Counted from the first letter of the stretch, positions 878 through 38,837 are shown. The stretch is DNA of 41,035 bases from a bacterium (GCA_030680955.1 JAUXUB010000016.1:1-41035), one strand, 5' to 3'. Translations and numbers: made by a program. Notes: generated by a model not told the origin, from the sequence alone.

Positions 878-1100
878 TCCCGTTAGAGATAGTTCCCGTT
901 AGAAATTTTACCCACCGACACAATAGGTAAATAAATATACTTAACTTTTTTTAATATCTTAAACATATTTTTATATTTTCAAATTTCTAACGGGATAGAT
1001 CGTGTATGTCACTAACACGATATCTTTATATTTATTAATTATAATTTTTGTAATACTTAACCCGTTAAAAAATCCACAGCGACCGCGATCTCTAACGGGA
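878..1100. mobile_element. MITE-like element, same family, copy 1b, in tandem with 1a and carrying a nested element
   Basis: Starts TCCCGTTAGAGATAG and ends CGCGATCTCTAACGGGA. TTCA lies at 874-877 and 1101-1104. Confidence 0.75.
895..994. mobile_element. 100-bp inner element (short CCCGTTAGAAATTT TIRs) nested in copy 1b
   Basis: Ends are CCCGTTAGAAATTTTACCCACCGACA and CAAATTTCTAACGGG, with ATAG on both sides. It is homologous to 38572-38671. Confidence 0.65.
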
Positions 1101-2023: not shown

Positions 2024-4216
2024 GTGCTAAAGGAATTGCCATCGGAGTACAATCCAAAAGAATACGAAGAAAAGATGTACAAACTCTGGGAAGACAGTGG
2101 TTTTTTTAATCCAGACAATTTACCTAAAGTTTCAAAACAAAAAAACTTTAGTATCATAATGCCGCCACCTAATGCAAATGGAGCGCTCCATATGGGGCAT
2201 GCGCTTTTTGTAACTTTACAAGACATAATGATTCGATATAAAAGAATGCAGGGATATAAAACACTATGGCTTCCAGGGGCAGATCATGCCGGTTTTGAAA
2301 CTCAAGTTGTTTACCAAAAGAAACTAGAAAAAGAAGGACGGTCTTTTTGGGAAGTGCCAAAAGATAAACTTTACGAGGAAATTTTAGCTTTTACACTAGA
2401 GAATAAAAAACATATGGAAAGCCAGCTTAGGCAACTTGGTGCTTCCTGTGATTGGGGAAGAGAGAAATTCACGCTAGACGATGATATTAAAAAAATAGTT
2501 TATGAAACATTTAAAAAACTTTATGATGACAATTTAGTATATAAAGCGGAGCGCCCTGTAAATTGGTGTACCAGACACCAAACAACCTTATCTGATTTAG
2601 AAATAAAGCACGAGGAGCGAAAAGATAAATTATTTTATGTTCGTTACAAATTTGAAAATTCTGAAGATTATATAGTTGTTGCTACAACAAGACCAGAAAC
2701 AATTCCGGCAGATATTGCGATCGCTGTAAACCCAAAATCAAAATGGAATAAATATGTTGGTAAGAAAGTTTTAAATCCACTTACTCAAGAGGCAATCTTG
2801 ATTATTAGCGATAAGCGCGTAGAAATTTCATTCGGAACTGGTGCGCTTAAAATAACGCCATATCACGACGCGTTAGACTTTGAAATATATAAGGATCATC
2901 CCGAACTACCAGCTTCAAAAAGTGTTATTAATAAATTTGGAGCAATAGAAAATTCTGGGACTAAACTTGATGGATTAAAAATATTGCCAGCAAGAGAAAA
3001 GTCTATAGAAATTTTAAAATTTTCACTAGACAAAGAACCAGAAGATTATGTTCACCAAGTTAGTATTTGCTACAAGTGCAATACTTTAATTGAACCAAGA
3101 ATAATGAATCAGTGGTTTATTAAGACCACCGAAAAATCAAAAACTGGTAGTAAATCTCTAAGAGACCTCGCGATAGATGCAGTAAAGACAAAAAAAGTAA
3201 AATTTGTAACAAAGAAGTTTGAAAAGATTTTCATGCATTGGATGAAGAATCTACGAGATTGGAATATATCTAGGCAAATTGTATGGGGTATTAAAATTCC
3301 AGCTTGGTATCATGAACCAATATGCATACCAAAAAAAGGCCACGAAGGTGATGTGGTGAAATGTAATGAAATTATAATTTCGATGGATGAACCAATATGC
3401 GAGTTTTGCGATGCAAAATTTATACAAGAGTCTGATGTTTTTGATACTTGGTTTTCTTCAGGTCAATGGCCATTCGCATCACTAATGTCCACTCATAATA
3501 AAAATGATTTTAAAGATTTTTATCCAACTGATGTGATGGAAACTGGATGGGATATTTTATTCTTTTGGATAGCAAGAATGATAATGTTGGGAACATACAA
3601 AACAGGTAAAGTGCCTTTCAAAACTGTTTACCTTCATGGGTTGGTTCGCGACAAAGACCGACAAAAAATGTCTAAATCTAAGGGCAATGTTATTGACCCT
3701 CTTGGTGTAGCAGATATTTATGGTGCAGATGCCATAAGAATGTCGCTTGTTGTTGGAACTGCTCCAGGAAATGACCCCGTTATTTCTGAAGATAAAATAC
3801 GCGGTTATAGGAATTTTGCAACAAAAATTTGGAATGCTACAAGACTAATAACAATGCGTGGGTCAAGCACGATTCCAGAAAAACCTAATTATACGAACGA
3901 AGATAAAAAAACACTAAAAGAATTTGAAAAATTCAAAAAAACAGTTATTAAAGATATGGATGCCTATCGCTTTCACGAAGCTTCAAATAAAATTTATCAT
4001 TATTTCTGGCATACTTTTGCCGACAAAATTCTTGAATCATCAAAAGCGCGCTTGCAAGATGAAAATAAAAAAGTTAAAGAAACCGCAACGGCATTTCTCA
4101 TTAAACTCTTAACAGAGCAATTAAAGCTTCTACATCCATTTATGCCTTTTGTAACAGAAGCTATTTGGCAAGAATTATATGGTGGAAAGAAAATATTAAT
4201 GGTGGAAAAATTGTGA
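2024..4216 (+). CDS. valS: Valine--tRNA ligase
   Basis: Class I motifs are present: PPPNANGALHMGH (HIGH) and KMSKSKGN (KMSKS). A CP1 editing region and an anticodon-binding domain are also present. GTG start, TGA stop. At 730 aa there is no C-terminal coiled-coil extension. Confidence 0.95.
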   Translation: MLKELPSEYNPKEYEEKMYKLWEDSGFFNPDNLPKVSKQKNFSIIMPPPNANGALHMGHALFVTLQDIMIRYKRMQGYKTLWLPGADHAGFETQVVYQKKLEKEGRSFWEVPKDKLYEEILAFTLENKKHMESQLRQLGASCDWGREKFTLDDDIKKIVYETFKKLYDDNLVYKAERPVNWCTRHQTTLSDLEIKHEERKDKLFYVRYKFENSEDYIVVATTRPETIPADIAIAVNPKSKWNKYVGKKVLNPLTQEAILIISDKRVEISFGTGALKITPYHDALDFEIYKDHPELPASKSVINKFGAIENSGTKLDGLKILPAREKSIEILKFSLDKEPEDYVHQVSICYKCNTLIEPRIMNQWFIKTTEKSKTGSKSLRDLAIDAVKTKKVKFVTKKFEKIFMHWMKNLRDWNISRQIVWGIKIPAWYHEPICIPKKGHEGDVVKCNEIIISMDEPICEFCDAKFIQESDVFDTWFSSGQWPFASLMSTHNKNDFKDFYPTDVMETGWDILFFWIARMIMLGTYKTGKVPFKTVYLHGLVRDKDRQKMSKSKGNVIDPLGVADIYGADAIRMSLVVGTAPGNDPVISEDKIRGYRNFATKIWNATRLITMRGSSTIPEKPNYTNEDKKTLKEFEKFKKTVIKDMDAYRFHEASNKIYHYFWHTFADKILESSKARLQDENKKVKETATAFLIKLLTEQLKLLHPFMPFVTEAIWQELYGGKKILMVEKL

Positions 4217-4370
4217 TACCATCCTCAATTAACCACTTCCTATAAGATTTTTGTCATTGCGAGGGCGAAGCCCGCGGCAATCTAGAAAAAAACGGGATAA
4301 ATCTGGATTGCTTCGTCGTTCCTCCTCGCAAAGACGAAGTTAAAAGAATAGTGGTTAATTGGGGATGGTA
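4217..4370 (+). mobile_element. 154-bp multi-hairpin MITE, copy 3 (orientation A)
   Basis: It begins immediately after the valS TGA and has TA at both ends. Confidence 0.85.
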
Positions 4371-4374
4371 TAAT
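4366..4374 (+). promoter_or_regulatory. TGGTATAAT at the MITE copy 3 right junction, facing the prsW-like gene
   Basis: Same junction sequence as at 1960 and 12023. It lies about 210 nt upstream of ATG 4585. Confidence 0.35.
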
Positions 4375-4446
4375 TTTAAGTGAAAATATTATTACAAATA
4401 AAAATAAGGAGAATAGACCTTTTGCACAATTATATTCGTAACGAGA

Positions 4447-11800: not shown

Positions 11801-11873
11801 TGGTTCGATGGAGCTACTTCGACAAGCTCAGTATAAATCACCACAGGTGGGCTTTTTTGTTTTTTTAATATAA

Positions 11874-12027
11874 TACCATCCCCAATTAACCACTACTCTT
11901 TTAATCTCGTCTTTGCGAGGAGGAACGACGAAGCAATCCAGATTTATCCCATTATTTCCTGGATTGCCGCGGGCTTCGCCCTCGCAATGACAAAAGTCTT
12001 ATAGGAAGTGGTTAATTGAGGATGGTA
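11874..12027 (-). mobile_element. 154-bp multi-hairpin MITE, copy 4 (orientation B)
   Basis: Near-identical to copy 2, with TA at both ends. It lies between rpmB and tRNA-Pro. Confidence 0.85.
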
Positions 12028-12031
12028 TAAT
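12023..12031 (+). promoter_or_regulatory. TGGTATAAT at the MITE copy 4 right junction, 30 nt upstream of tRNA-Pro(GGG)
   Basis: GGATGG|TA|TAATAAAG. The spacing is compatible with a short tRNA leader. Confidence 0.5.
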
Positions 12032-12060
12032 AAAGTAGACTTAAGATATTATAAAATTAC

Positions 12061-16723: not shown

Positions 16724-16856
16724 GTGGATAACCGGGTAGTGAAAATACGAGCGTTTTTTAAGGTTTTTGAACGAAAAATTTGGAATATCTAAGTTAAAGA
16801 GAATGTTCTCGAGTTAGTATTTGTTTCAAAACTCGTATTTCTACTACCCGGATAAC
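16724..16856. mobile_element. MITE-like element, GGATAACCGGGTAGT family, copy 1
   Basis: Ends are GTGGATAACCGGGTAGTGAAAATACGAGCG and CAAAACTCGTATTTCTACTACCCGGATAAC. The 20-nt TIR core matches at 18 of 20 positions. It lies 9 bp after the trpD stop. Confidence 0.65.
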
Positions 16857-26249: not shown

Positions 26250-26267
26250 TTTCCACTATTTCAACAT

Positions 26268-27017
26268 TATTTACGTCATCGCAAGACGTAAATATTATTC
26301 CAACACTAACTTTTTAATACTATCCAAATCTAAATTTTGAAGCCAAGATTTTATACTTTTTTTATATCCATCCGGTCCATCAAAAAATTCAGATAATAAC
26401 TCTCTTTGGGTAACTGAGGGGAAATTTTTCTCCCCAGAGTAATCACGATGACTCGACCAGCGATAGCTATCTAAAAATTCAATTGCTTTCCTATAATTCG
26501 TCAATTTGCGATCTCGCCATTCCTTAAATTTAAAATCTAATGGATTGAAATGAATATAGTATGGAAGGTGAATAAAATGTGCGTCGTTCTTAACCGGAAC
26601 AGATTTAAATCTCCCCTCAAACAAAGTTCCGACTCTTTCGTATTTATTGTTAAAATACTTGGCATATCCCATATTAACTTTTTTCATAAACAATGAGATA
26701 CTACCCTCGTGACGAGGAGAAATAAGAAGGTGATAGTGATTATCCATCAAACAAAAAACGTGTAGATCAACCAATAACTTTCTTGGCTTCTTTTCATTGG
26801 GTTCAAATTTACGTCTTGCGATGACGTTAAATTGATAATAAGTGCTATTCGCTGGTTCTTGATTATTAAATTCAAATAAGTCGTGAATGAAGCGGTAGCG
26901 ATCCTCATCATCCATAAATATTTTTCTTTTATCTACTCCTCTACTTAAAACGTGATATATTTCACTCATAATGTAATATATAATATCCCAATATTTACGT
27001 CATCGCAAGACGTTAAT
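26268..27017 (-). mobile_element. IS200/RAYT-like unit: Y1 (HUH) transposase gene bracketed by two copies of one hairpin
   Basis: The hairpin TATTTACGTC-ATCGCAA-GACGTAAATA at 26268-26294 is repeated in the same orientation at 26993-27017 with one stem mismatch. The surrounding roughly 35 bp are also repeated. Confidence 0.65.
26295..26969 (-). CDS. REP-associated tyrosine transposase (RAYT) / IS200-like Y1 HUH transposase
   Basis: HUH motif MDNHYHLL, then YIHFNP and RWSSH, as in COG1943/RAYT proteins. 224 aa. Confidence 0.75.
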   Translation of the reverse strand: MSEIYHVLSRGVDKRKIFMDDEDRYRFIHDLFEFNNQEPANSTYYQFNVIARRKFEPNEKKPRKLLVDLHVFCLMDNHYHLLISPRHEGSISLFMKKVNMGYAKYFNNKYERVGTLFEGRFKSVPVKNDAHFIHLPYYIHFNPLDFKFKEWRDRKLTNYRKAIEFLDSYRWSSHRDYSGEKNFPSVTQRELLSEFFDGPDGYKKSIKSWLQNLDLDSIKKLVLE

Positions 27018-27018
27018 A

Positions 27019-29556
27019 TTATTTTAATATTTTTCTAAGATATTCACCTGTTGCACTTCCTGCACATCGTGCAACATCTTCTGGAGTTCCTTGCGCAATA
27101 ATCTTTCCGCCCTTAACTCCACCTTCTGGGCCTAAGTCAATTACCCAATCGGCACATTTTATAACATCTAAATTATGCTCAATAACAATTATTGAATTTC
27201 CCTTTTCAACAAGTTTTTGCAAAACATCCATTAAGTTTTGGATGTCGGCAAAGTGAAGGCCTGTAGTTGGCTCGTCTAACAAATATAGTGTCCGTCTTGT
27301 ATCGGGCTTTCCTAATTCAGAAGAAAGTTTAATTCTTTGAGCCTCGCCACCAGATAAGGTCGTCGCAGATTGTCCTAATTGCAAATATTCCAAACCAACA
27401 TCACCCATTATTTTTAAACGCTCATAAAGCCAAGGAATATCCCTAAAAAATACTATAGCTTCTTCTACTGTCATCTTAAGTATGTCGTGTATATTTTTAT
27501 CCTTGTATTCCACCGCTAGCGTTTCACGATCAAAACGTTTGCCTTTGCAAACATCACACTCAACATAAACTGTTGGTAAAAAGTGCATTTCAATTGCTAT
27601 AGTTCCGTGTCCTTCACAGTTCTCACAACGCCCTCCTGGAACATTAAAACTAAATCGCCCAGGTTTATAACCTCGAACTCGCGCATCTTCGGTCGAAGCA
27701 AAAAGTTCCCTGATATAAGTCCATGCACCTACATACGTTGCCGGATTAGATCTTGGAGTTCTTCCTATGGCAGATTGGTCAATATTAATTATTCTATTAA
27801 AATACTCCAAACCCAATATTGAGTTAACTCCATCTACTTTGAAGCTTGATCTATTTAGTTTATTAGAAACATATTTATAAATAACGTCATAAACCAAAGA
27901 ACTTTTACCAGAACCCGAAACTCCAGTAACAGCCACTAACCTACGAAGTGGAATGTCTACATTTATATTTTGAAGATTGTTAGTTGAGGCACCGCGAATT
28001 TTTAGATAATCATGTTGCTTCGTGATACTTCTTCGCTTCTCTGGAATAGGAATAGTAACTTTTCCACGCAAATAATCTAATGTTAGCGATTTATACTTAT
28101 CTTTATCCTTAATTATTTGAGGCATAGGACCTTCTGCTACTATATGTCCGCCGTGGACTCCAGCACCTGGTCCGATATCAACAAGATAATCTGCGGTTCT
28201 AATAGTATCTTCGTCGTGCTCAACAATAATTATAGTATTACCAATATCTCGTAAATTTTTTAGTGTTTCAATAAGTTTTGCATTATCTCTCTGGTGCAAC
28301 CCAATTGTCGGCTCGTCTAATATATATAAAGTTCCTACAAGCCGTGAGCCAATTTGTGAGGCAAGCCGAATACGCTGGGCTTCTCCACCTGACAAGGTTC
28401 CAGCCATTCTGTTTAGTGTTAAATATTCTAATCCTACGTCAAACATAAATTGAAGACGACTTCTAACCTCACGAAGCGGCACTTCGGCAATACTTAATTT
28501 AGTCTCATCAAGTGATTTTTGAACATCGGTTATCCATTGTTTTGATTCACTAATAGACATTGCCACAACTCCTGCAATATTTTTCCCCTCAACTAAAACA
28601 CTTAAAGCTTCGCGTCTTAGACGCTTTCCATCGCATACTGGACAAACTTTCTCAGAAAAAAGAGATTCTGTCCCGAGTCCGTTACAAGCCGTACACGCTC
28701 CATAGGGACTATTGAACGAGAATAATCTTGGCTCTATTTCTAAAAATGCAAAACCATCTCGGGCGCAAGTAAATTTTGCTGAAAATGAATGCTCATCATT
28801 GCCGTCTGCAATTACGGTAACAACATCATTTCCATATTTAAGAGCTGACTCAATTGCCTCTGCAAGACGAAGTCGATTATCTTTTCCATCCTTAATAGAA
28901 AAATCTAGCATTTGAGGGATTCGATCTACTAACAATTCTATTGTATGAGCCTTATAACGAGAAAGTTCGATTCTATTTCTAAGTGATTTAAATTCTCCAT
29001 CTATTCTAATCTCAGAAAAACCTGCATTTAAAAAATTATAAAGCATCTGATAATATTCCCCTTTTCTACCACGTACTACAGGTGCCAAAATTAAAATATT
29101 TTTGTCTGTTTTTGCTTTTTTAAACAATCGTATGACAGCATCCACTATCTCTTCTTTTGTAAGTTTCTTTATCTCGTGACCACAATCTGGACAGTGCGGT
29201 ACACCTGAGCGCGCAAAGAGCACACGAAGATAATCATAGATTTCTGTAATGGTTGCAACTGTTGAACGAGGATTATGTGAATGACTTTTCTGGTCAATTG
29301 AAATGGCTGGCGAAAGACCTTCAATCTCATCCACGTCTGGCTTATCTAATTTACCTAAAAACTGACGCGCATAAGCAGAAAGAGACTCAATGTAACGTCT
29401 TTGCCCTTCCGCAAAAATGGTATCAAACGCTAAGCTAGACTTACCCGAACCGGAAAGCCCAGTAAATACTATCATTTTATTTCGAGGTAATCTCAAAGAT
29501 ATATTTTTAAGATTATGCTCTCTTGCTCCTTTTATTGTAATAAAGTCTTGTGCCAT
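27019..29556 (-). CDS. uvrA: Excinuclease ABC subunit A (845 aa, lacks the insertion domain)
   Basis: Two ABC modules (GLSGSGKSS, GVSGSGKSS, two LSGGEAQR) and zinc modules. Only 9 residues separate CTACNGLG and CPVCDGKRL. Confidence 0.95.
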   Translation of the reverse strand: MAQDFITIKGAREHNLKNISLRLPRNKMIVFTGLSGSGKSSLAFDTIFAEGQRRYIESLSAYARQFLGKLDKPDVDEIEGLSPAISIDQKSHSHNPRSTVATITEIYDYLRVLFARSGVPHCPDCGHEIKKLTKEEIVDAVIRLFKKAKTDKNILILAPVVRGRKGEYYQMLYNFLNAGFSEIRIDGEFKSLRNRIELSRYKAHTIELLVDRIPQMLDFSIKDGKDNRLRLAEAIESALKYGNDVVTVIADGNDEHSFSAKFTCARDGFAFLEIEPRLFSFNSPYGACTACNGLGTESLFSEKVCPVCDGKRLRREALSVLVEGKNIAGVVAMSISESKQWITDVQKSLDETKLSIAEVPLREVRSRLQFMFDVGLEYLTLNRMAGTLSGGEAQRIRLASQIGSRLVGTLYILDEPTIGLHQRDNAKLIETLKNLRDIGNTIIIVEHDEDTIRTADYLVDIGPGAGVHGGHIVAEGPMPQIIKDKDKYKSLTLDYLRGKVTIPIPEKRRSITKQHDYLKIRGASTNNLQNINVDIPLRRLVAVTGVSGSGKSSLVYDVIYKYVSNKLNRSSFKVDGVNSILGLEYFNRIINIDQSAIGRTPRSNPATYVGAWTYIRELFASTEDARVRGYKPGRFSFNVPGGRCENCEGHGTIAIEMHFLPTVYVECDVCKGKRFDRETLAVEYKDKNIHDILKMTVEEAIVFFRDIPWLYERLKIMGDVGLEYLQLGQSATTLSGGEAQRIKLSSELGKPDTRRTLYLLDEPTTGLHFADIQNLMDVLQKLVEKGNSIIVIEHNLDVIKCADWVIDLGPEGGVKGGKIIAQGTPEDVARCAGSATGEYLRKILK

Positions 29557-31272: not shown

Positions 31273-33387
31273 TCATCTGGTAATACGCGCAGTAAAATTA
31301 GAGCTGGGTTTAGATTTTGTTCCTATAGATTTTCGCTCTTTGTTCAAATCTTTAGACAAAATCTTAATTTCATCTCGCAGAATCGCTGCGAGTTCGAAGT
31401 CTAACTCGCCAGAGGCCTCCTTCATAGATTTTTCTTTCTCTTTAATAATATCTTCAATTTTTTTGCCCTTAATCGCACTTAAATCTAACTTCAAAACTGC
31501 TGCAATATCTTTACGTTTGGACATCAATTCTTCGGTAATATCATGAATGGCACGTTCAATCGTTTTAGGAGTAATTCCATGTTTTTTATTGTAGGCAAGC
31601 TGAATTGTGCGACGTCTTTCGGTTTCTCCGATTGCACGGGTAAGTGATCCAGTCATATGATCCGCATATAATAGCACCAGACCATTCACATTTCTGGCAG
31701 CGCGACCAATAGTCTGGATTAGAGCTGTATCAGAACGCAAAAATCCTTCTTTATCAGCGTCCATAATAGCAACGAGTGATACTTCTGGCAAGTCTAATCC
31801 TTCTCGCAATAAGTTAACACCAACCAATACGTCAAATTTACCACGCCTTAAATTAGAAAGTATTTGAATTCTATCCATTGTCTTTACATCACTATGAAGA
31901 TATTCGGATTTGATTTTCTCTTGCTGTAAGTATGCGCTTAAATCTTCTGCCATTTTCTTAGTAAGAGTTGTTACTAATACTCTCTCTTTTTTTTCTACAC
32001 GTTCTGCAATCCATTTCATTAAATCTTTTACTTGATTCTTGGCAGGCAATATTTTTATTTGAGGATCAACAAGCCCAGTCGGCCTAATGATTTGCTCAAC
32101 TATCCCCGACGCTTCGGTCGGGGCTCCGACCCCACTATTTTTAAAATCAGATTTGGGGCGTCGGAGCTGATTAGCTGCTTCACGACTTATTTGTTTTTCA
32201 TATTCAGCCGGTGTTGCTGAAGTATATATAATTTGATGAACGCGCTCATTAAATTCATTAAATTTTAGAGGACGATTATCTGCCGCGCTTGGCAGTCTAA
32301 ATCCATACTCTATAAGAGTTTTCTTGCGAGATGCATCTCCCGCATACATTCCTGTTATTTGTGGAACGGTAACATGAGATTCGTCTATGATAGTAAGGAA
32401 ATCTCCTCGAAAATAATCTAATAGTGTTTCTGGTGGCTCTCCTGCGGCACGCCCAGATAGTTGCCTTGAGTAATTTTCAATCCCATGACAATAACCAACT
32501 TCTTGAATCATCGCTAAATCAAATTTTGTTCTTTGATCTAGACGCTCGGCTTCTAGAAATTTTTTGTCATTTTCAAAAACTTTTAATTGCTCTTCGAGTT
32601 CCTTCCTGATTGCTTTTACAGCGCGCTGCTTTTGCGGACCTAATGTAATGAAGTGTCTAGCTGGAGAAATAATAATATCAGGAATAATTTTTGACTCACG
32701 TGACACTGGATCTACTAAATATATTTCTTTTATTAAATCGCCTTCTGTTACAAAGTTATAAATGATTTCCTTGTCTGGTGGCATTACCTCCCAGTTATCC
32801 CCCCTCAACCTAAATGACCCCCTGGTTAAATCTGCATTAGTTCTTTTAAACTGCAGCTGAACTAATTTTCTTGCAAATTCTTTTCGAGTTACTCTGTCTA
32901 ACGGTTTTAGTCTTATAATATTTTCTGCGTATGCTTCTGGTGCTCCCAAGCCGTAGATACAAGAAACGGAGGCAACAACAATTACGTCTTTCCTTGTTAG
33001 CAGGTCAGTAGTTGCCGCATGACGTAATTTATCTATCTCGTCATTTATCATTGCTTCTTTTTCGATATAGGTATCAGAACTTGGCATATAAGCTTCCGGC
33101 TGATAATAATCATAATAAGAAACAAAATAATTTACAGAATTATTTGGAAATATTTCTCTAAATTCATTGCAAAGTTGAGCAGCTAAAGTTTTGTTATGAG
33201 CTATTACAAGAGTTGGCTTTTGAATTTTTTCTATGACGTTTGCAACTGTGAATGTTTTACCAGAACCTGTAACACCCAAGAGTGTTTGGTGTTTCATGCC
33301 CGCTTCTAATCCAGCGACTAGTTGTTTAATCGCCTTTGGTTGATCTCCCGCTGGACGATGTTTAGATACAATTTTAAAATTATTCAT
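31273..33387 (-). CDS. uvrB: Excinuclease ABC subunit B
   Basis: GVTGSGKT, DESH, helicase motifs and a C-terminal UVR motif (FELAAILRDEI). The start is moved to ATG 33387 (MNNFKIVSKHRPAGDQPKAI). Confidence 0.95.
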   Translation of the reverse strand: MNNFKIVSKHRPAGDQPKAIKQLVAGLEAGMKHQTLLGVTGSGKTFTVANVIEKIQKPTLVIAHNKTLAAQLCNEFREIFPNNSVNYFVSYYDYYQPEAYMPSSDTYIEKEAMINDEIDKLRHAATTDLLTRKDVIVVASVSCIYGLGAPEAYAENIIRLKPLDRVTRKEFARKLVQLQFKRTNADLTRGSFRLRGDNWEVMPPDKEIIYNFVTEGDLIKEIYLVDPVSRESKIIPDIIISPARHFITLGPQKQRAVKAIRKELEEQLKVFENDKKFLEAERLDQRTKFDLAMIQEVGYCHGIENYSRQLSGRAAGEPPETLLDYFRGDFLTIIDESHVTVPQITGMYAGDASRKKTLIEYGFRLPSAADNRPLKFNEFNERVHQIIYTSATPAEYEKQISREAANQLRRPKSDFKNSGVGAPTEASGIVEQIIRPTGLVDPQIKILPAKNQVKDLMKWIAERVEKKERVLVTTLTKKMAEDLSAYLQQEKIKSEYLHSDVKTMDRIQILSNLRRGKFDVLVGVNLLREGLDLPEVSLVAIMDADKEGFLRSDTALIQTIGRAARNVNGLVLLYADHMTGSLTRAIGETERRRTIQLAYNKKHGITPKTIERAIHDITEELMSKRKDIAAVLKLDLSAIKGKKIEDIIKEKEKSMKEASGELDFELAAILRDEIKILSKDLNKERKSIGTKSKPSSNFTARITR
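32104..32167 (-). repeat. G+C-rich double-hairpin module inserted in frame in uvrB
   Basis: Plus strand: CCCCGAC-GCTTCG-GTCGGGG, then GCTCCGACCCC...GGGGCGTCGGAGC. It encodes ...NQLRRPKSDFKNSGVGAPTEASG..., an extra segment of about 22 aa relative to E. coli UvrB just before RPTGL. Confidence 0.65.
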
Positions 33388-33542
33388 AGGGTTTACTTGC
33401 CCCGTTAAATTGCGCAGCAATTTTTTACGGGGTGTTTTGAAACTATTTTGAACATAAATATCAAAAGTGCCCAAGAGATAAAATCACTAGGGGGTATGTC
33501 TTAAGTTGTGATTACAGTATAACACATAAATCAGAATAAATC

Positions 33543-34100: not shown

Positions 34101-34511
34101 TTATACTTTGGGAGTTTTATTATCCAGGTTTTGAACTGTAATAACAATTTCTCTTTCTCTTGGCCCTGCCATTTCAACCAAAACAACTCTTTGCCATGCT
34201 CCCAAATAAAGCTTGCTATCTTTTATTGGAACAACAAGTGAAGACCCAATTAGCGCAGTAATAATATGGTCTGGAGTGTGTTCTGGATTATGAGGATGAC
34301 GATATGCAAGCTTTGGAACTATTTCCTTAAAAGCATCCATCATATCCTGGTCTGTGCCTGGGTCAAGATCTGCGGTGGTAATTGCCGCGGTAGTGTGAAG
34401 CGAAAATACGGAAACTAATCCTTCATCTATTCCCTTTACCTCTAAATCTACAATATTTGTAATATCAATTACTTCTTTATCTTTTTTTGTTGAAATTTTA
34501 ATTGTCTTCAT
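34101..34511 (-). CDS. yjbQ: YjbQ/UPF0047 family protein (secondary thiamine-phosphate synthase-like)
   Basis: GLVSVFSLHTTAAITTADLDPGTDQDM...HPHNPEHTPDHI...LGAWQRVVLVE is typical of YjbQ. The start is moved to ATG 34511, because the 9 extra codons in the track lie in the repeat. Confidence 0.8.
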   Translation of the reverse strand: MKTIKISTKKDKEVIDITNIVDLEVKGIDEGLVSVFSLHTTAAITTADLDPGTDQDMMDAFKEIVPKLAYRHPHNPEHTPDHIITALIGSSLVVPIKDSKLYLGAWQRVVLVEMAGPREREIVITVQNLDNKTPKV

Positions 34512-34628
34512 CCCGTTAGAAATAGGACGCGGACGCAAAAAGCGTTATGCATACTATTTAGTTAATTATAAATATTAATTATTCTATGCTTTACATACTC
34601 TATAACTCGTCCGCTATTTCTAACGGGA
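34511..34628. mobile_element. MITE-like element, CCCGTTAGA-TIR family, simple copy
   Basis: TCCCGTTAGAAATAGGACGCGGACGC ... GTCCGCTATTTCTAACGGGA. TTCA lies at 34507-34510 and 34629-34632. Confidence 0.8.
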
Positions 34629-34680
34629 TTCATCCCATCATCAAAAAAACATAACTCACTACTTCTTTCACTACTATTAA

Positions 34681-35274
34681 CTATAATTTAAGTCTAACAC
34701 AACCTTCCCGTAACACAACAACCTTTCCATTTAATACGGAAATGAGGGTTGAGGGCTTGCCCATAATCCTTCCTTTGTCTACATAGAAGTCAACCCTTCG
34801 ATCTAACTCTGGGTAAATCTTGTTACCAAAATACACCTTTGCTTCTTTTATTGTTTTTGCTGGTAATTTGCCCTCAACATTGGCACTTGGCGCAACAAGG
34901 GGGCCAACTTCTTTTAGTAAATTAATTAGTGATTTACTTACAGGCAATCTAAATGCAAGTGTCTTTGTTCCACGATGTAAATAATAATACTTTTTGTTTA
35001 AAGAAGATAATATTATACTAATTTGTCCTGGCCACAATTTTTTTAAAATTCTTTTAGTAACTTTATCAATCTTAATATCAAAAAGTTCCAAATCCTTCAT
35101 AGAACTAATCAAAACAATAAACGGCTTACTTGGATTTCTTTTTTTAGCCTTATAGATTCGCCTTACAGTTTTTTTGTTTAAAGCCGCACCAACAAGTCCA
35201 TATATCGTGTCTGTGGGCAGTACACCAATACCACCACGCTTCAGAATAGAAATAATTTCTTTTGGCGCATTCAA
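34681..35274 (-). CDS. tsaC: L-threonylcarbamoyladenylate synthase (YrdC/TsaC family)
   Basis: VLPTDTIYGL, KKRNPSKPFIVL and SANVEGK motifs. TTG start. Confidence 0.8.
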   Translation of the reverse strand: MNAPKEIISILKRGGIGVLPTDTIYGLVGAALNKKTVRRIYKAKKRNPSKPFIVLISSMKDLELFDIKIDKVTKRILKKLWPGQISIILSSLNKKYYYLHRGTKTLAFRLPVSKSLINLLKEVGPLVAPSANVEGKLPAKTIKEAKVYFGNKIYPELDRRVDFYVDKGRIMGKPSTLISVLNGKVVVLREGCVRLKL

Positions 35275-35439: not shown

Positions 35440-36021
35440 CTACTCGAATATCAAAACGGCGGCAGAAATAGTGGTTGTCCACAAGCCGTTTTTGTCACCT
35501 TGAGCGGACTGAGTATTATTCATTGTTTTAAAAATCTTTCCAGAAGATTTATAAACCTGTTCGCGCTCATCCCATGCGGCATTAGAATCAAATTCCAAAC
35601 CTAATGTCGTCGCCAGCATTGTTGCCGCTAAATCTTCGGCATACTCTCCTGCTTTCTCGTCAGTCTCGCCAAATGGATGATGTTCAGAAAGATAACCATA
35701 TTGGGCAGGATCTGACGGCAAGGCCAAACCAATTGAGGCAGCAATTAAACGATTTGGTTCATTAGTAGCGTTCCTCGCCATTACACAAAAAACAACTTGA
35801 CCAGGAACCATGAACTTCTTTCCTTCTTCCCTCGTTATACGTTTACAATTCGGTGGGAAAATTGAACTTACATAAACTAAATTAAATTCTGCAATTCCAG
35901 CGTCTCAAAGCGCCAACTCAAATGAAGCTAAATAATCTTTGTGACGACCTACGCCCTTTGTAAGAAACATTCTTTTTGGAACAAAGGTTTCCGTGTGAGA
36001 AGAACTATTTGTGTTTTCCAT
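35440..36021 (-). pseudogene. pdaD: Pyruvoyl-dependent arginine decarboxylase interrupted by one in-frame TGA (codon 39)
   Basis: From ATG 36021: [56 protein letters not shown]..., continuing in frame into track ORF 35440-35811. The TGA at 35905-35907 sits where PdaD proteins have Arg (ELALRDA). Confidence 0.7.
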
Positions 36022-36124: not shown

Positions 36125-36256
36125 GTGGATAACCAGGTAGTGAAAATGCGAGCGTATTTATAATTACAGCAATAGAACATTTACGATATTAACGCTTTTG
36201 TCTATCATTTTAAATCAAATGTATTTCAAAACTCGCATTTCTACTACCTGGATAAG
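36125..36256. mobile_element. MITE-like element, GGATAACCGGGTAGT family, copy 2
   Basis: GTGGATAACCAGGTAGTGAAAATGCGAGCG ... CAAAACTCGCATTTCTACTACCTGGATAAG. The ends match copy 1 but the core is unrelated. Confidence 0.65.
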
Positions 36257-37467: not shown

Positions 37468-38553
37468 TTATACAATTATCCTCTCAATAAGTGGATTTAT
37501 TCTTGTCAAAAACTCATAGTAAGATGTTCTTGCTTTAAAGCTTGCGTCTATTATATCAATTTCAACTTTATCCATTATTTTGCAGGCAATATCGGTTACG
37601 TCCACCATAACTACATCCATAGTTACTCTCCCTAATATCTTTGCTCTCTCATTATTAATTATAACATCGCCAACGCCAGAGAGGGCCCAAGGAAGACCAT
37701 GCCAATAACCAATTGGTAAAATTCCAATTTTGGTTTTTCGATTTAATCTTTCGGTTAAATCATAACTCACATAACTTCCCTTAGGCGCTTCTTTAATTTC
37801 ACTTATGATAGTTTTCCAGCGTAAAACTGGTTTAAGTTTTATTTGTGGAAATTGTATTTTTATTTCTTTTGAAGGAGCGTGCCCATAAAGCCCCATTCCA
37901 ATACGAACCATATCAAAATGATATTTCGGATTAAGTATAGTAGCGGACGATGCCGCGGCATGCTTAATAAGTTTTGTAAAACCTTTTTTTGCAAAAAGTG
38001 CTATAGCTTTCTGAAATTTTTGGAACTGCATTTCGGTATAAGTTGGATAATTAATATCTTTTGCGGAAGAGAAATGCGTATAAATACCTTCCACGCATGT
38101 GACATGTAACATGTTACGTGTTACTAGTTTTATCACTTGTGGTATTTCATTAATAAAGAAGCCCTGTCGATTCATCCCTGTATCTATTTTAATATGAATT
38201 TTTGGTTTATTTTTTGACTTTATCCAATCTTTTAATGCATTAATGTTTGATATTGTAATGGCACAATTATTTTTGATGACGACATCATAATTTGAAGACA
38301 GAGTCATTCCCAAAACTAAAATTGGTTTTTTTATATTATGCTTACGCAACGTTTCTGCTTCAAAGACAGAGTCTACACAAAAATAATCCACACCACTACT
38401 TACTATTACAGCATAATCATATAAACCATGACCATAGGCGTTACTTTTAACAACCGAGGCAAGTTTAACCTTAGGCCCAATGAGACCTCTAAAAACGCCA
38501 ATATTATGGATTGCAGCTTTTTGATTTATTTCAATCCATGTCTTTAATTTCAT
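37468..38553 (-). CDS. alr: Alanine racemase
   Basis: MKLKTWIEINQKAAIHNI...VVKSNAYGHG (PLP lysine motif)...YGHAPS. The start is moved to ATG 38553, because the 54 extra codons in the track are read-through of the repeat. Confidence 0.85.
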   Translation of the reverse strand: MKLKTWIEINQKAAIHNIGVFRGLIGPKVKLASVVKSNAYGHGLYDYAVIVSSGVDYFCVDSVFEAETLRKHNIKKPILVLGMTLSSNYDVVIKNNCAITISNINALKDWIKSKNKPKIHIKIDTGMNRQGFFINEIPQVIKLVTRNMLHVTCVEGIYTHFSSAKDINYPTYTEMQFQKFQKAIALFAKKGFTKLIKHAAASSATILNPKYHFDMVRIGMGLYGHAPSKEIKIQFPQIKLKPVLRWKTIISEIKEAPKGSYVSYDLTERLNRKTKIGILPIGYWHGLPWALSGVGDVIINNERAKILGRVTMDVVMVDVTDIACKIMDKVEIDIIDASFKARTSYYEFLTRINPLIERIIV

Positions 38554-38780
38554 CCCGTTAGAAATAGGACGCGTTAGAAATTTTACCAACCGACAGATTT
38601 GGTAAATATAATGTTTTATTGATTTGAAATATAATTTCCATAAAATATTAGTTTTTAAATTTCTAAACGGGATAGGACGCGGACATAAAACCATATTCGC
38701 TGACCCGATGACCAAGACAGGGGCAATAATATTTGGGTCATCAGGTCAGGTGGATTACGCGTCCGCTATTTCTAACGGGA
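38553..38780. mobile_element. MITE-like element, CCCGTTAGA-TIR family, composite copy
   Basis: TCCCGTTAGAAATAGGACGC ... GCGTCCGCTATTTCTAACGGGA. TTCA lies at 38549-38552 and 38781-38784. Confidence 0.8.
38572..38671. mobile_element. 100-bp inner element nested in the composite copy
   Basis: CGTTAGAAATTTTACCAACCGACA ... AAATTTCTAAACGGG, with ATAGGACGC on both sides. Homolog of 895-994. Confidence 0.6.
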
Positions 38781-38782
38781 TT

Positions 38783-38837
38783 CATAAAATCACTAGATCA
38801 TTAAATCAAAGTGTTCTAGTGTTCTAGTGATTTTATG
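38783..38837. repeat. About 55-bp palindromic motif, copy B, overlapping the serS 3' end
   Basis: CATAAAATCACTAGATCATTAAATCAAAGTGTTCTAGTGTTCTAGTGATTTTATG. The 11-bp arms are AAAATCACTAG / CTAGTGATTTT. It contains an 8-bp tandem duplication. Confidence 0.6.

Follow-up and report, generated by a model that had tools for sequence, protein, structure and literature searches.

A small inverted-repeat element occupies the yjbQ start codon and rebuilds its ATG: a MITE-like family probably directed to gene starts in Patescibacteria

How does a gene keep its start codon when a small inverted-repeat element sits exactly on it? The question is raised by yjbQ (UPF0047), a gene in a stretch of bacterial DNA of 41,035 nucleotides (JAUXUB010000016.1, assembly GCA_030680955.1), which is analysed here at its full length as "the window", with positions counted from its first letter. 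An earlier note, made from the sequence by itself, had described at this place a 118-bp element resembling a MITE (miniature inverted-repeat transposable element) and had taken it as the archetype of a family associated with start codons. Our reading, to which we give a probability of about 0.6, is that the element belongs to a non-autonomous, MITE-like family of inverted-repeat mobile elements, 58-126 bp in length and widespread in Paceibacteria-type Patescibacteria, and that a trans-acting enzyme directs its integration to gene starts, with selection reinforcing the pattern.

Read directly on the plus strand, the order at yjbQ is TTCA (34507-34510), the element (TCCCGTTAGAAATAGGACGCGGAC...GTCCGCTATTTCTAACGGGA, 34511-34628) and TTCA again (34629-34632), in agreement with the earlier description. 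On the minus strand, which encodes yjbQ, the same DNA reads GGGATGAA/element/TGAAGACAATT, translated M K T I. The terminal A of the element does restore the ATG, as had been proposed: the junction reads ATGAAG, i.e., Met-Lys, and orthologs hold an empty ATGAAG or ATGAAA at this position. As also described, the displaced ATGAA opens a short open reading frame (ORF), of 23 amino acids (MNPVRNSGRVIEYVKHRIINIYN), that stops inside the element. The inverted repeats had been put at about 24 bp; an extension to about 22-26 nt is present in one subfamily, but the universally conserved part is the outer 13 nt only, which are perfect in all copies, including the termini of the yjbQ element. Numbered from the rebuilt ATG, residues 16-126 of the yjbQ product match positions 1-117 of the 117-position Pfam profile, and the public annotation (P0001) has the identical start, giving a protein of 136 amino acids; the ORF listing also gives an artificial yjbQ ORF of 145 amino acids that begins at a TTG within the element. 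Folding of the leader RNA, which the earlier note had suggested, gave an arm-to-arm hairpin of the terminal repeats at -45.6 kcal/mol (z = -4.5).

Close yjbQ homologues were retrieved along with their flanking DNA, and filled and empty sites were compared. One of them (L120, 91% identical; L numbers denote fetched loci) has an element at this very site; its duplication is intact, but the proximal (gene-side) arm has partly decayed. Three others (L121, L122 and L123; 81%, 81% and 76% identical) have a single ATGAAG or ATGAAA and no element, the sites reading ...ATGAAGACAATT, ATGAAAACT and ATGAAGGTA, respectively, with the N terminus unchanged. There is thus a presence/absence polymorphism at orthologous yjbQ sites, filled in the window and L120 and empty in L121-L123. 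The empty sites establish that this was a true insertion, that the rebuilt ATG is the real start and where the boundaries of the element lie. The possibility that orthologs start further upstream, making the element simply part of a leader, falls away: the N terminus is the same at the empty sites, and the Pfam domains are complete from the rebuilt ATG.

The TTCA duplication (TGAA on the gene strand) had been expected at other copies as well. A 4-bp duplication is general, being perfect in 78 of 90 flank pairs, but only 51 of these are TGAA; the other 27 are identical pairs of different sequence (TGGA, TGAG, TGCG, TGTA and others), and the remaining 12 pairs differ. The rule is therefore TGNN, where NN tracks the host gene's own second codon. 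Flank sequence shows no association with element subfamily, so that the duplication derives from the target, as with a staggered cut. Four copies (L088, L132, L151 and L184) have GTGNN upstream and A/TGNN downstream, which means that the duplication is exactly 4 bp, that the A belongs to the element and that GTG starts become ATG; variant elements with a terminal G rebuild GTG. A duplication borne by the element itself, whether as the core of a site-specific recombination system or as a right-end cleavage site of the IS200/605 type, was also considered; it is ruled out by the 27 identical non-TGAA pairs and the subfamily-independent flanks.

A gapped pattern needing both exact 13-nt arms, scanned on one genome per species, gave at least 119 loci. 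Among the matches listed, together with the window copies, there are 127 intact copies of 96-126 bp from about 100 species of Patescibacteria, which are ultra-small bacteria. Hosts of the listed loci are nearly all metagenome-assembled genomes (MAGs) of Patescibacteria (Nomura-, Lloyd-, Wolfe-, Kaiser-, Yanofsky-, Taylor-, Zambryski-, Campbell-, Jorgensen- and Doudnabacteria, Kazan and others), and the host genes are mutually unrelated housekeeping genes. A separate scan of metagenomes with one arm yielded 46 paired copies, including short forms of 58-81 bp. Viral contigs gave 61 matches, all of them solo arms at chance level, and no paired copies. Among Rfam covariance models only tRNAs reached the gathering score in the window, the element itself having only chance-level microRNA matches (E ~5), and a literature search by sequence string and by topic found neither the arm in a relevant context nor MITEs on start codons or in Patescibacteria. 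The MITE-like reading is supported by the terminal inverted repeats, the target duplication, the empty sites, the unrelated hosts and the existence of tandem and nested copies.

The prediction that copies elsewhere would be enriched at start codons was borne out. In the genome collection, 112 of the 127 copies (88%) have a terminal A that joins TG to open an ORF of 60 or more codons, and 32 of the 46 paired metagenome copies lie on an ATG with a long ORF. When only the ATG-flanked copies among the listed matches are counted, 112/117 (96%) are on starts (p < 1e-27, even against a null share of 50%). By comparison, 26-30% of all ATG or ATGAA sites in the same loci are trailed by at least 60 open codons, and of the sites where insertion would interrupt no gene (those in non-coding DNA and the true starts), the share of starts is 15% for ATG and 27% for ATGAA. 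Upstream of the displaced ATG, its frame meets a stop within 40 codons in 83 of 90 copies, showing that the targets are genuine starts and not internal methionine codons. There is a preference for certain target sequences: NN is AA in 60% of targets (21% of genes) and consists of two purines in 85%, and the sites taken by nested or odd copies are ATAGG, ATAGA or ATAAA. However, this preference (ATRRR, best ATGAA) is far too weak to explain the location, and a simple sequence preference combined with avoidance of coding DNA is rejected as the cause of the association with starts.

The other outer copies in the window show the same geometry, as the earlier note had stated, being flanked by TTCA and placed on the starts of a TraC/VirB4-like gene and of alr. 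With at most two mismatches, the terminal 13-mer TCCCGTTAGAAAT has 11 matches in the window, where 1.5 would be expected (none of 100 shuffles reached 11), and all 11 fall within the three loci. The window contains 149 ATGAA sites, and every outer insertion at the three loci is on a gene start. The nested copies in A2, the second of two tandem elements on the TraC/VirB4-like gene, and in the alr element were inserted at TAGA or TAGG just interior to the gene-proximal arm. The alr ORF is listed as 415 amino acids, versus a real length of 361. Coordinates are given in the table.

Table. Positions of the start-codon elements in the window, their parts and the genes they adjoin
Feature	Position	Strand	Details
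Element on yjbQ start	34511-34628	minus	118 bp, AT-rich core; from sequence reading, repeat matches, fold and arm consensus
Proximal arm (yjbQ side)	34511-34523	minus	inner neighbour AGGA at 34524-34527 (TCCT on gene strand)
Distal arm	34616-34628	minus	from sequence reading and arm consensus
Gene-side 4-bp duplication	34507-34510	minus	TGAA; with terminal A at 34511, the rebuilt ATGAA of yjbQ
Displaced original ATGAA	34629-34633	minus	duplication copy 34629-34632, native A 34633
Short ORF from displaced ATG	34562-34633	minus	23 amino acids; ends in core, relay ORF not intact
yjbQ (UPF0047) coding sequence	34101-34511	minus	begins at rebuilt ATG
Outer copy A1, on TraC/VirB4-like gene	754-873	minus	120 bp; TTCA 750-753 and 874-877; TraC_F_IV Pfam match
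A1 relay ORF	759-878	minus	intact, 39 amino acids, MNPVRDRGR...ASASYL; ends at proximal-arm TAA, 4 nt before gene ATG (754-752)
Outer copy A2, in tandem with A1	878-1100	minus	TTCA 874-877 and 1101-1104; displaced ATGAA 1101-1105
Nested inner copy in A2	894-995		flanks TAGT/TAGA
Outer copy on alr start codon	38553-38780	minus	228 bp; TTCA 38549-38552 and 38781-38784
Nested inner copy in alr element	38569-38663		flanks TAGG 38565-38568 and 38664-38667
alr coding sequence	37468-38553	minus	alanine racemase N-terminal domain, profile positions 1-220 at residues 9-227

Some members or relatives of the family depart from this arrangement. Off-target copies are rare. One, at L085 (512-628, minus orientation), lies within a cysteine-desulfurase-like gene at codon 4, reading ATGAAGAGAATTTA/element/TTTATCTC, and cuts off the Shine-Dalgarno site and the ATG. 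At L022 a copy (810-929) lies 27 nt upstream of a start codon, beside a TACAAT box. Solo proximal arms that exactly adjoin a start codon, 8-22 nt past the preceding stop, were seen at L041 (2037-2050, ATTTCTAACGGGA/TG) and L073 (6253-6265, ATCTCTAACGGGA/TG); these hint that the proximal arm is retained once it has become part of the initiation region. In several copies (L007, L046, L047, L050, L098 and L115) CAAG(T)/ACTTG flanks replace the usual duplication. Within the window, a 33-nt hairpin (CCCCGTAAAAAATTGC-TGC-GCAATTTAACGGGG, 33400-33432, minus strand), followed by CAAGT and located 12 nt before the start of uvrB (ATG at 33387), looks like a collapsed relative of the family.

Two further inverted-repeat families occur in the window. 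One has four copies of about 165-170 bp (1185-1350, 1804-1971, 4211-4379 and 11853-12036) with terminal inverted repeats of 24-28 nt (AATATAATACCATCCCCAATTAACCACT); the copies are 93-94% alike, lie in both orientations and are all in spacers, with none on a start codon. The other has two copies of about 126 bp (16729-16854 and 36130-36254) with 23-nt arms (TAACCGGGTAGTGAAAATACGAG), about 88-92% alike over the compared stretches and both intergenic. Because these two MITE-like families sit in spacers, spacer insertions evidently persist in this genome, and the restriction to starts is specific to the family studied here.

What do the targeted starts have in common? No Shine-Dalgarno signal precedes the displaced ATG, and TANNNT hexamers peak 6-9 nt before it. 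A -10-like hexamer 6-9 nt before the displaced ATG is found in 44% of targets versus 27% of other genes, and Shine-Dalgarno-like sites in 4.5% versus 14%. Leaderless or non-Shine-Dalgarno initiation seems to be common in these Patescibacteria (the window and L001-L119). As for the preceding genes, 13 of the displaced ATGs share an ATGA with the stop codon of a long upstream ORF, 8 abut a stop and 27 lie 4-60 nt past one. Targeting of the transcription start sites of leaderless genes was considered as a general rule and rejected: 21 of 90 targets are operon-internal overlaps or abutments of stop and start, so that the common denominator is the start codon itself and not the promoter. At the ATGA overlaps the duplication preserves both signals: the displaced copy leaves the upstream gene with its TGA, and an ATG is restored to the downstream gene.

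The elements are strongly oriented relative to the host gene (91:14, p = 5e-15). In gene-oriented copies the two ends differ: the proximal one reads ...TCC-TAT(C/T)TCTAACGGGA/TG and shows 55-75% conservation at positions 14-17, where the distal one varies. Arm position 11 is an A-T pair in 68 copies, a G-C pair in 42 and a mismatch in 2, and unselected neighbouring copies hold compensated variants at positions 1, 12 and 13. Pairing of the arms thus seems to be under constraint, as single-stranded DNA or as RNA. A second, GC-rich stem is confined to one large subfamily, which also shares a conserved central motif; as a universal feature such a stem was rejected, being present in only 38 of 112 copies.

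Because it reads into the arm, the ORF that begins at the displaced ATG always starts M-x-P-V-R-N/D. The length of the element is divisible by three in 46 of 88 copies (p = 0.0003), and in 29 of these 46 the frame stays open through the element and stops at the proximal-arm TAA, 4 nt before the rebuilt ATG (UAAcgggAUG); we refer to such an ORF as a relay ORF. Among copies whose length leaves a remainder of one, 4/18 end at a TGA overlapping the rebuilt ATG, whereas only 1/24 is open among the copies whose length would give an in-frame fusion with the host protein (Fisher p = 8e-7). The frame of the upstream ORF is open in 34 of 88 copies, compared with 6 for the other sense frame and 14 and 16 for the antisense frames. 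A stop within a few nucleotides of the rebuilt start, or overlapping it, is present in 33/88 copies, and the pattern reappears in the metagenome set (10/25 copies). A peptide search for annotated relay peptides gave no candidates. An intact relay ORF is present in copy A1 of the window and was not found in the yjbQ element. The label of archetype therefore fits the latter in part: its geometry was confirmed, but at 118 bp (remainder one) its upstream ORF ends early and there is no intact relay.

Integration occurs by a 4-bp staggered cut at TGNN, i.e., the last two bases of the start codon plus two of codon 2. With both ends reading ...CGGGA outward, the gene-side junction becomes A/TGNN, preserving the ATG and the full coding sequence, and the original start codon and its upstream signals are shifted by the length of the element plus 4 bp. 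Those signals may consist of a promoter immediately ahead of the start codon, with a -10-like box a few bases upstream and no leader, or of an ATGA in which stop and start overlap; a Shine-Dalgarno site is occasional. We propose that ribosomes would start at the displaced codon and translate the relay ORF (M-x-P-V-R-N/D...) across the element, melting the hairpin; in the best-designed copies they would terminate at the UAA of the terminal repeat, or at a UGA that overlaps the rebuilt AUG, before reinitiating on the host gene. Such a relay would make insertion nearly neutral whatever the mechanism by which the host gene is initiated. We rate this route of expression, which is predicted from reading frames, at slightly worse than even odds; among the expression mechanisms that the earlier note had put forward, the relay ORF lends reinitiation indirect support. 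A fuller version is more tentative, and we regard it as possible but somewhat doubtful: that the integration machinery actively targets any start codon (promoter-fronted first genes, ATGA overlaps and GTG alike) and splits it, with the terminal A and the relay ORF letting the family colonise near-spacer-free genomes harmlessly; start codons would in that case be a dedicated safe-harbour niche and the element a portable module for translational coupling.

Several points weigh against directed integration followed by relay expression. No autonomous partner sharing the termini was found in about 1.6 Mb of fetched loci (which hold no arm pairs more than 330 bp apart), in the viral contigs or in the window, and the window has no gene for a DDE transposase. 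Clustering of the ORFs around the copies returned housekeeping families plus a Y1/RAYT-like gene, with no other recurrent transposase-like cluster. Classic DDE MITEs would not be expected to have co-varying arms; the co-variation hints at a hairpin step on single strands, which lies outside the model. About two-thirds of the copies, including that on yjbQ, are without an intact relay ORF, so that reinitiation is not the sole route of expression. Finally, persistence bias, through the deletion of copies in spacers, may have contributed to the enrichment at starts.

The Y1/RAYT-like gene was observed in the window itself. A Y1_Tnp gene (IS200-like/RAYT-like, with the HUH motif NHYHLL) lies at 26295-26969 on the minus strand and has homologues in five other element-bearing loci. 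Near-identical hairpins (ATTTACGTCATCGCAAGACGTAAAT) flank it on both sides (26265-26299 and 26989-27023), and the gene itself contains a third copy (26797-26830); these hairpins are unrelated to the start-codon element. At L005, REP-like palindromes (CCAACTTGG...CCAAGTTGG) lie inside and beside the Y1 gene.

Could the concentration at starts be due to survivorship alone? The element would then insert at any T-R-R-R or ATGAA-like site, coding hits would be lethal, spacer copies would be lost through the deletion bias of streamlined genomes, and copies on start codons would accumulate as in a ratchet, since imprecise deletion there kills the gene. We consider this unlikely, although it draws on real features of the data. 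The target preference is genuine, with nested and odd insertions at TAGG, TAGA, TAAA and CTAA; a few copies do lie off starts, as at L022 and L085; solo proximal arms have been kept beside the ATG after loss of the remaining element; and the orthologous copy at L120 shows that copies can be old. However, even with all non-coding sites counted as safe, the expected share at starts is 15-27%, far from that observed for the ATG-flanked copies. Sampling with exact arms, moreover, favours young copies, on which the ratchet would not yet have acted, the arms decaying at a roughly neutral rate in the single orthologous pair (L120). Other MITE-like families have been retained in spacers of the same window, and the decaying spacer remnants of this family that were seen were few.

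Other explanations concern what the element does once in place, or whether it moves at all. It might be a portable leaderless promoter or RNase site, the proximal end (hairpin-TCC-TATYTC-TAACGGG-A) starting or cutting the transcript at the terminal A so that the mRNA begins with AUG, in which case the hairpin or the upstream ORF would be irrelevant. The asymmetry of the proximal arm, in which the T at position 14 puts TATYTC 7 nt before the A, would suit such a role, as would the orientation bias, the many leaderless-looking genes with a -10-like box and the persistence of solo proximal arms beside the ATG. We nevertheless think it improbable, because the native -10 hexamers found here all end in a T that TATYTC lacks, the promoter scan called no -35/-10 pair in or next to the element at 34400-34800 (consensus promoter and terminator scans of the three loci being uninformative), RNase III cleaves inside helices and not at their base, and neither the excess of lengths divisible by three nor the open relay frame is explained. 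Removal or bypass at the level of RNA, with the hairpin bringing AUGNN and UGNN together so that ribosomes hop, as in T4 gene 60 and the byp elements, or with the hairpin being excised from the mRNA, seems to us very improbable. The duplicated codons do flank a stable helix, and the arms co-vary, so that pairing matters; but the duplication reaches 2 nt past the codon and behaves like an ordinary target duplication, the ORF continues through the element with no stop after the take-off codon, the GTG/ATG pairs are mismatched, no ribozyme or RNA family matches, and the gap of 62-130 nt is longer than those of known programmed bypasses (~27-55 nt). That the element is not mobile, but a conserved cis-regulatory leader or an integron attC-like site belonging to the genes, can practically be dismissed. 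Its size range (58-126 bp) and bulged hairpin do resemble attC, and the termini hold GTTAGAR/YTCTAAC, close to the attC cores GTTRRRY/RYYYAAC, although this is a resemblance only. Sites of the attC type recombine at G/TTRRRY and belong to arrays of promoterless cassettes with an IntI integrase. Here the boundary fixed by the empty sites and the 4-bp duplications is 4 nt outside GTT and not at G/TT, the hosts are unrelated housekeeping genes, tandem and nested copies exist, no integrase is nearby, and the polymorphism among orthologs largely refutes an immobile leader. Directed integration of a mobile family into start codons thus remains our preferred reading.

If it is correct, the element would be the first known mobile element to land on a start codon while repairing it, and would define a new niche for transposons where non-coding DNA is scarce. 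The identical 13-nt termini across about 100 species imply a conserved trans-acting enzyme, possibly one that recognises hairpins. In Patescibacteria, where translation is essentially unstudied, the family is a naturally occurring, portable system in which termination-reinitiation and initiation independent of a Shine-Dalgarno site could be examined. It also bears on annotation: gene callers may extend ORFs into the element, and displaced promoters lie at least 100 bp from their genes. Apart from this family, the pyruvoyl-dependent arginine decarboxylase gene of the window (35440-36021) has an in-frame TGA at 35905-35907 (minus strand; ...SFELAL*DAGIAEF...), so that it falls into two ORFs; a pseudogene, an error of sequencing or recoding could account for this.

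How does the family compare with known systems? With bacterial MITEs such as the Correia elements of Neisseria (CREE/NEMIS) it shares a size of about 100-150 bp, hairpin-forming terminal repeats, a short duplication, many gene-adjacent copies, the lack of a transposase of its own and expected effects on the expression of neighbouring genes. Correia elements have an IHF site, undergo RNase III processing and duplicate TA; their distance from genes varies, and none is known directly on a start codon. In the present family, by contrast, the duplication is TGNN, the terminal base completes the ATG, one orientation predominates and an ORF reads through the element to end 4 nt short of the gene; neither the TA duplication nor the restriction to Neisseria is found, the host range being a class-level radiation (Patescibacteria) and not one genus. 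Rickettsia palindromic elements are likewise palindromic mobile elements that coexist with coding sequences in reduced genomes, but they insert in frame within ORFs and are translated with the protein, whereas the elements described here stay outside the protein and the in-frame class is depleted.

A likeness to piggyBac and IS1380 may also exist, in the 4-bp duplication of a T-rich or A-rich tetranucleotide, the 13-bp repeats, the C-rich tips and the TAGA core. The termini are CCCTAGAAAGATA in piggyBac and CCTAGA... in ISEcp1, compared with TCCCGTTAGARAT here. However, the target is TGAA/TGRR and not TTAA, and no such transposase was found. As with REP/BIME-RAYT systems and IS200/IS605 derivatives, there are structure-dependent hairpin repeats, co-varying arms and a Y1_Tnp gene, in the window and in five element loci; those systems, however, insert 3' of a fixed tetranucleotide, make no target duplication and have repeats that flank the Y1 gene, whereas here the duplication is genuine, the arms are not individually palindromic and the Y1 gene is accompanied by different hairpins. 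Programmed bypass sites resemble the element in the matched AUGNN/UGNN flanks but lie inside an ORF, not at its start, and have a stop or hairpin directly after the take-off codon.

A functional parallel is with termination-reinitiation coupling in operons (ATGA, UAAnnnnAUG): in a third of copies the relay ORF stops 4 nt before the host AUG or overlaps it, and the displaced start often still shares an ATGA with the gene ahead of it. The difference is that the coupling ORF is here a predicted one, supplied by a mobile element and portable between genes. The element can thus be classed as a MITE, but it does not have the features that define Correia elements, Rickettsia palindromic elements, attC sites, REP/IS200 derivatives and bypass elements. 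What sets it apart is its precise and probably directed occupation of start codons, together with a self-repairing junction and a portable coupling ORF.

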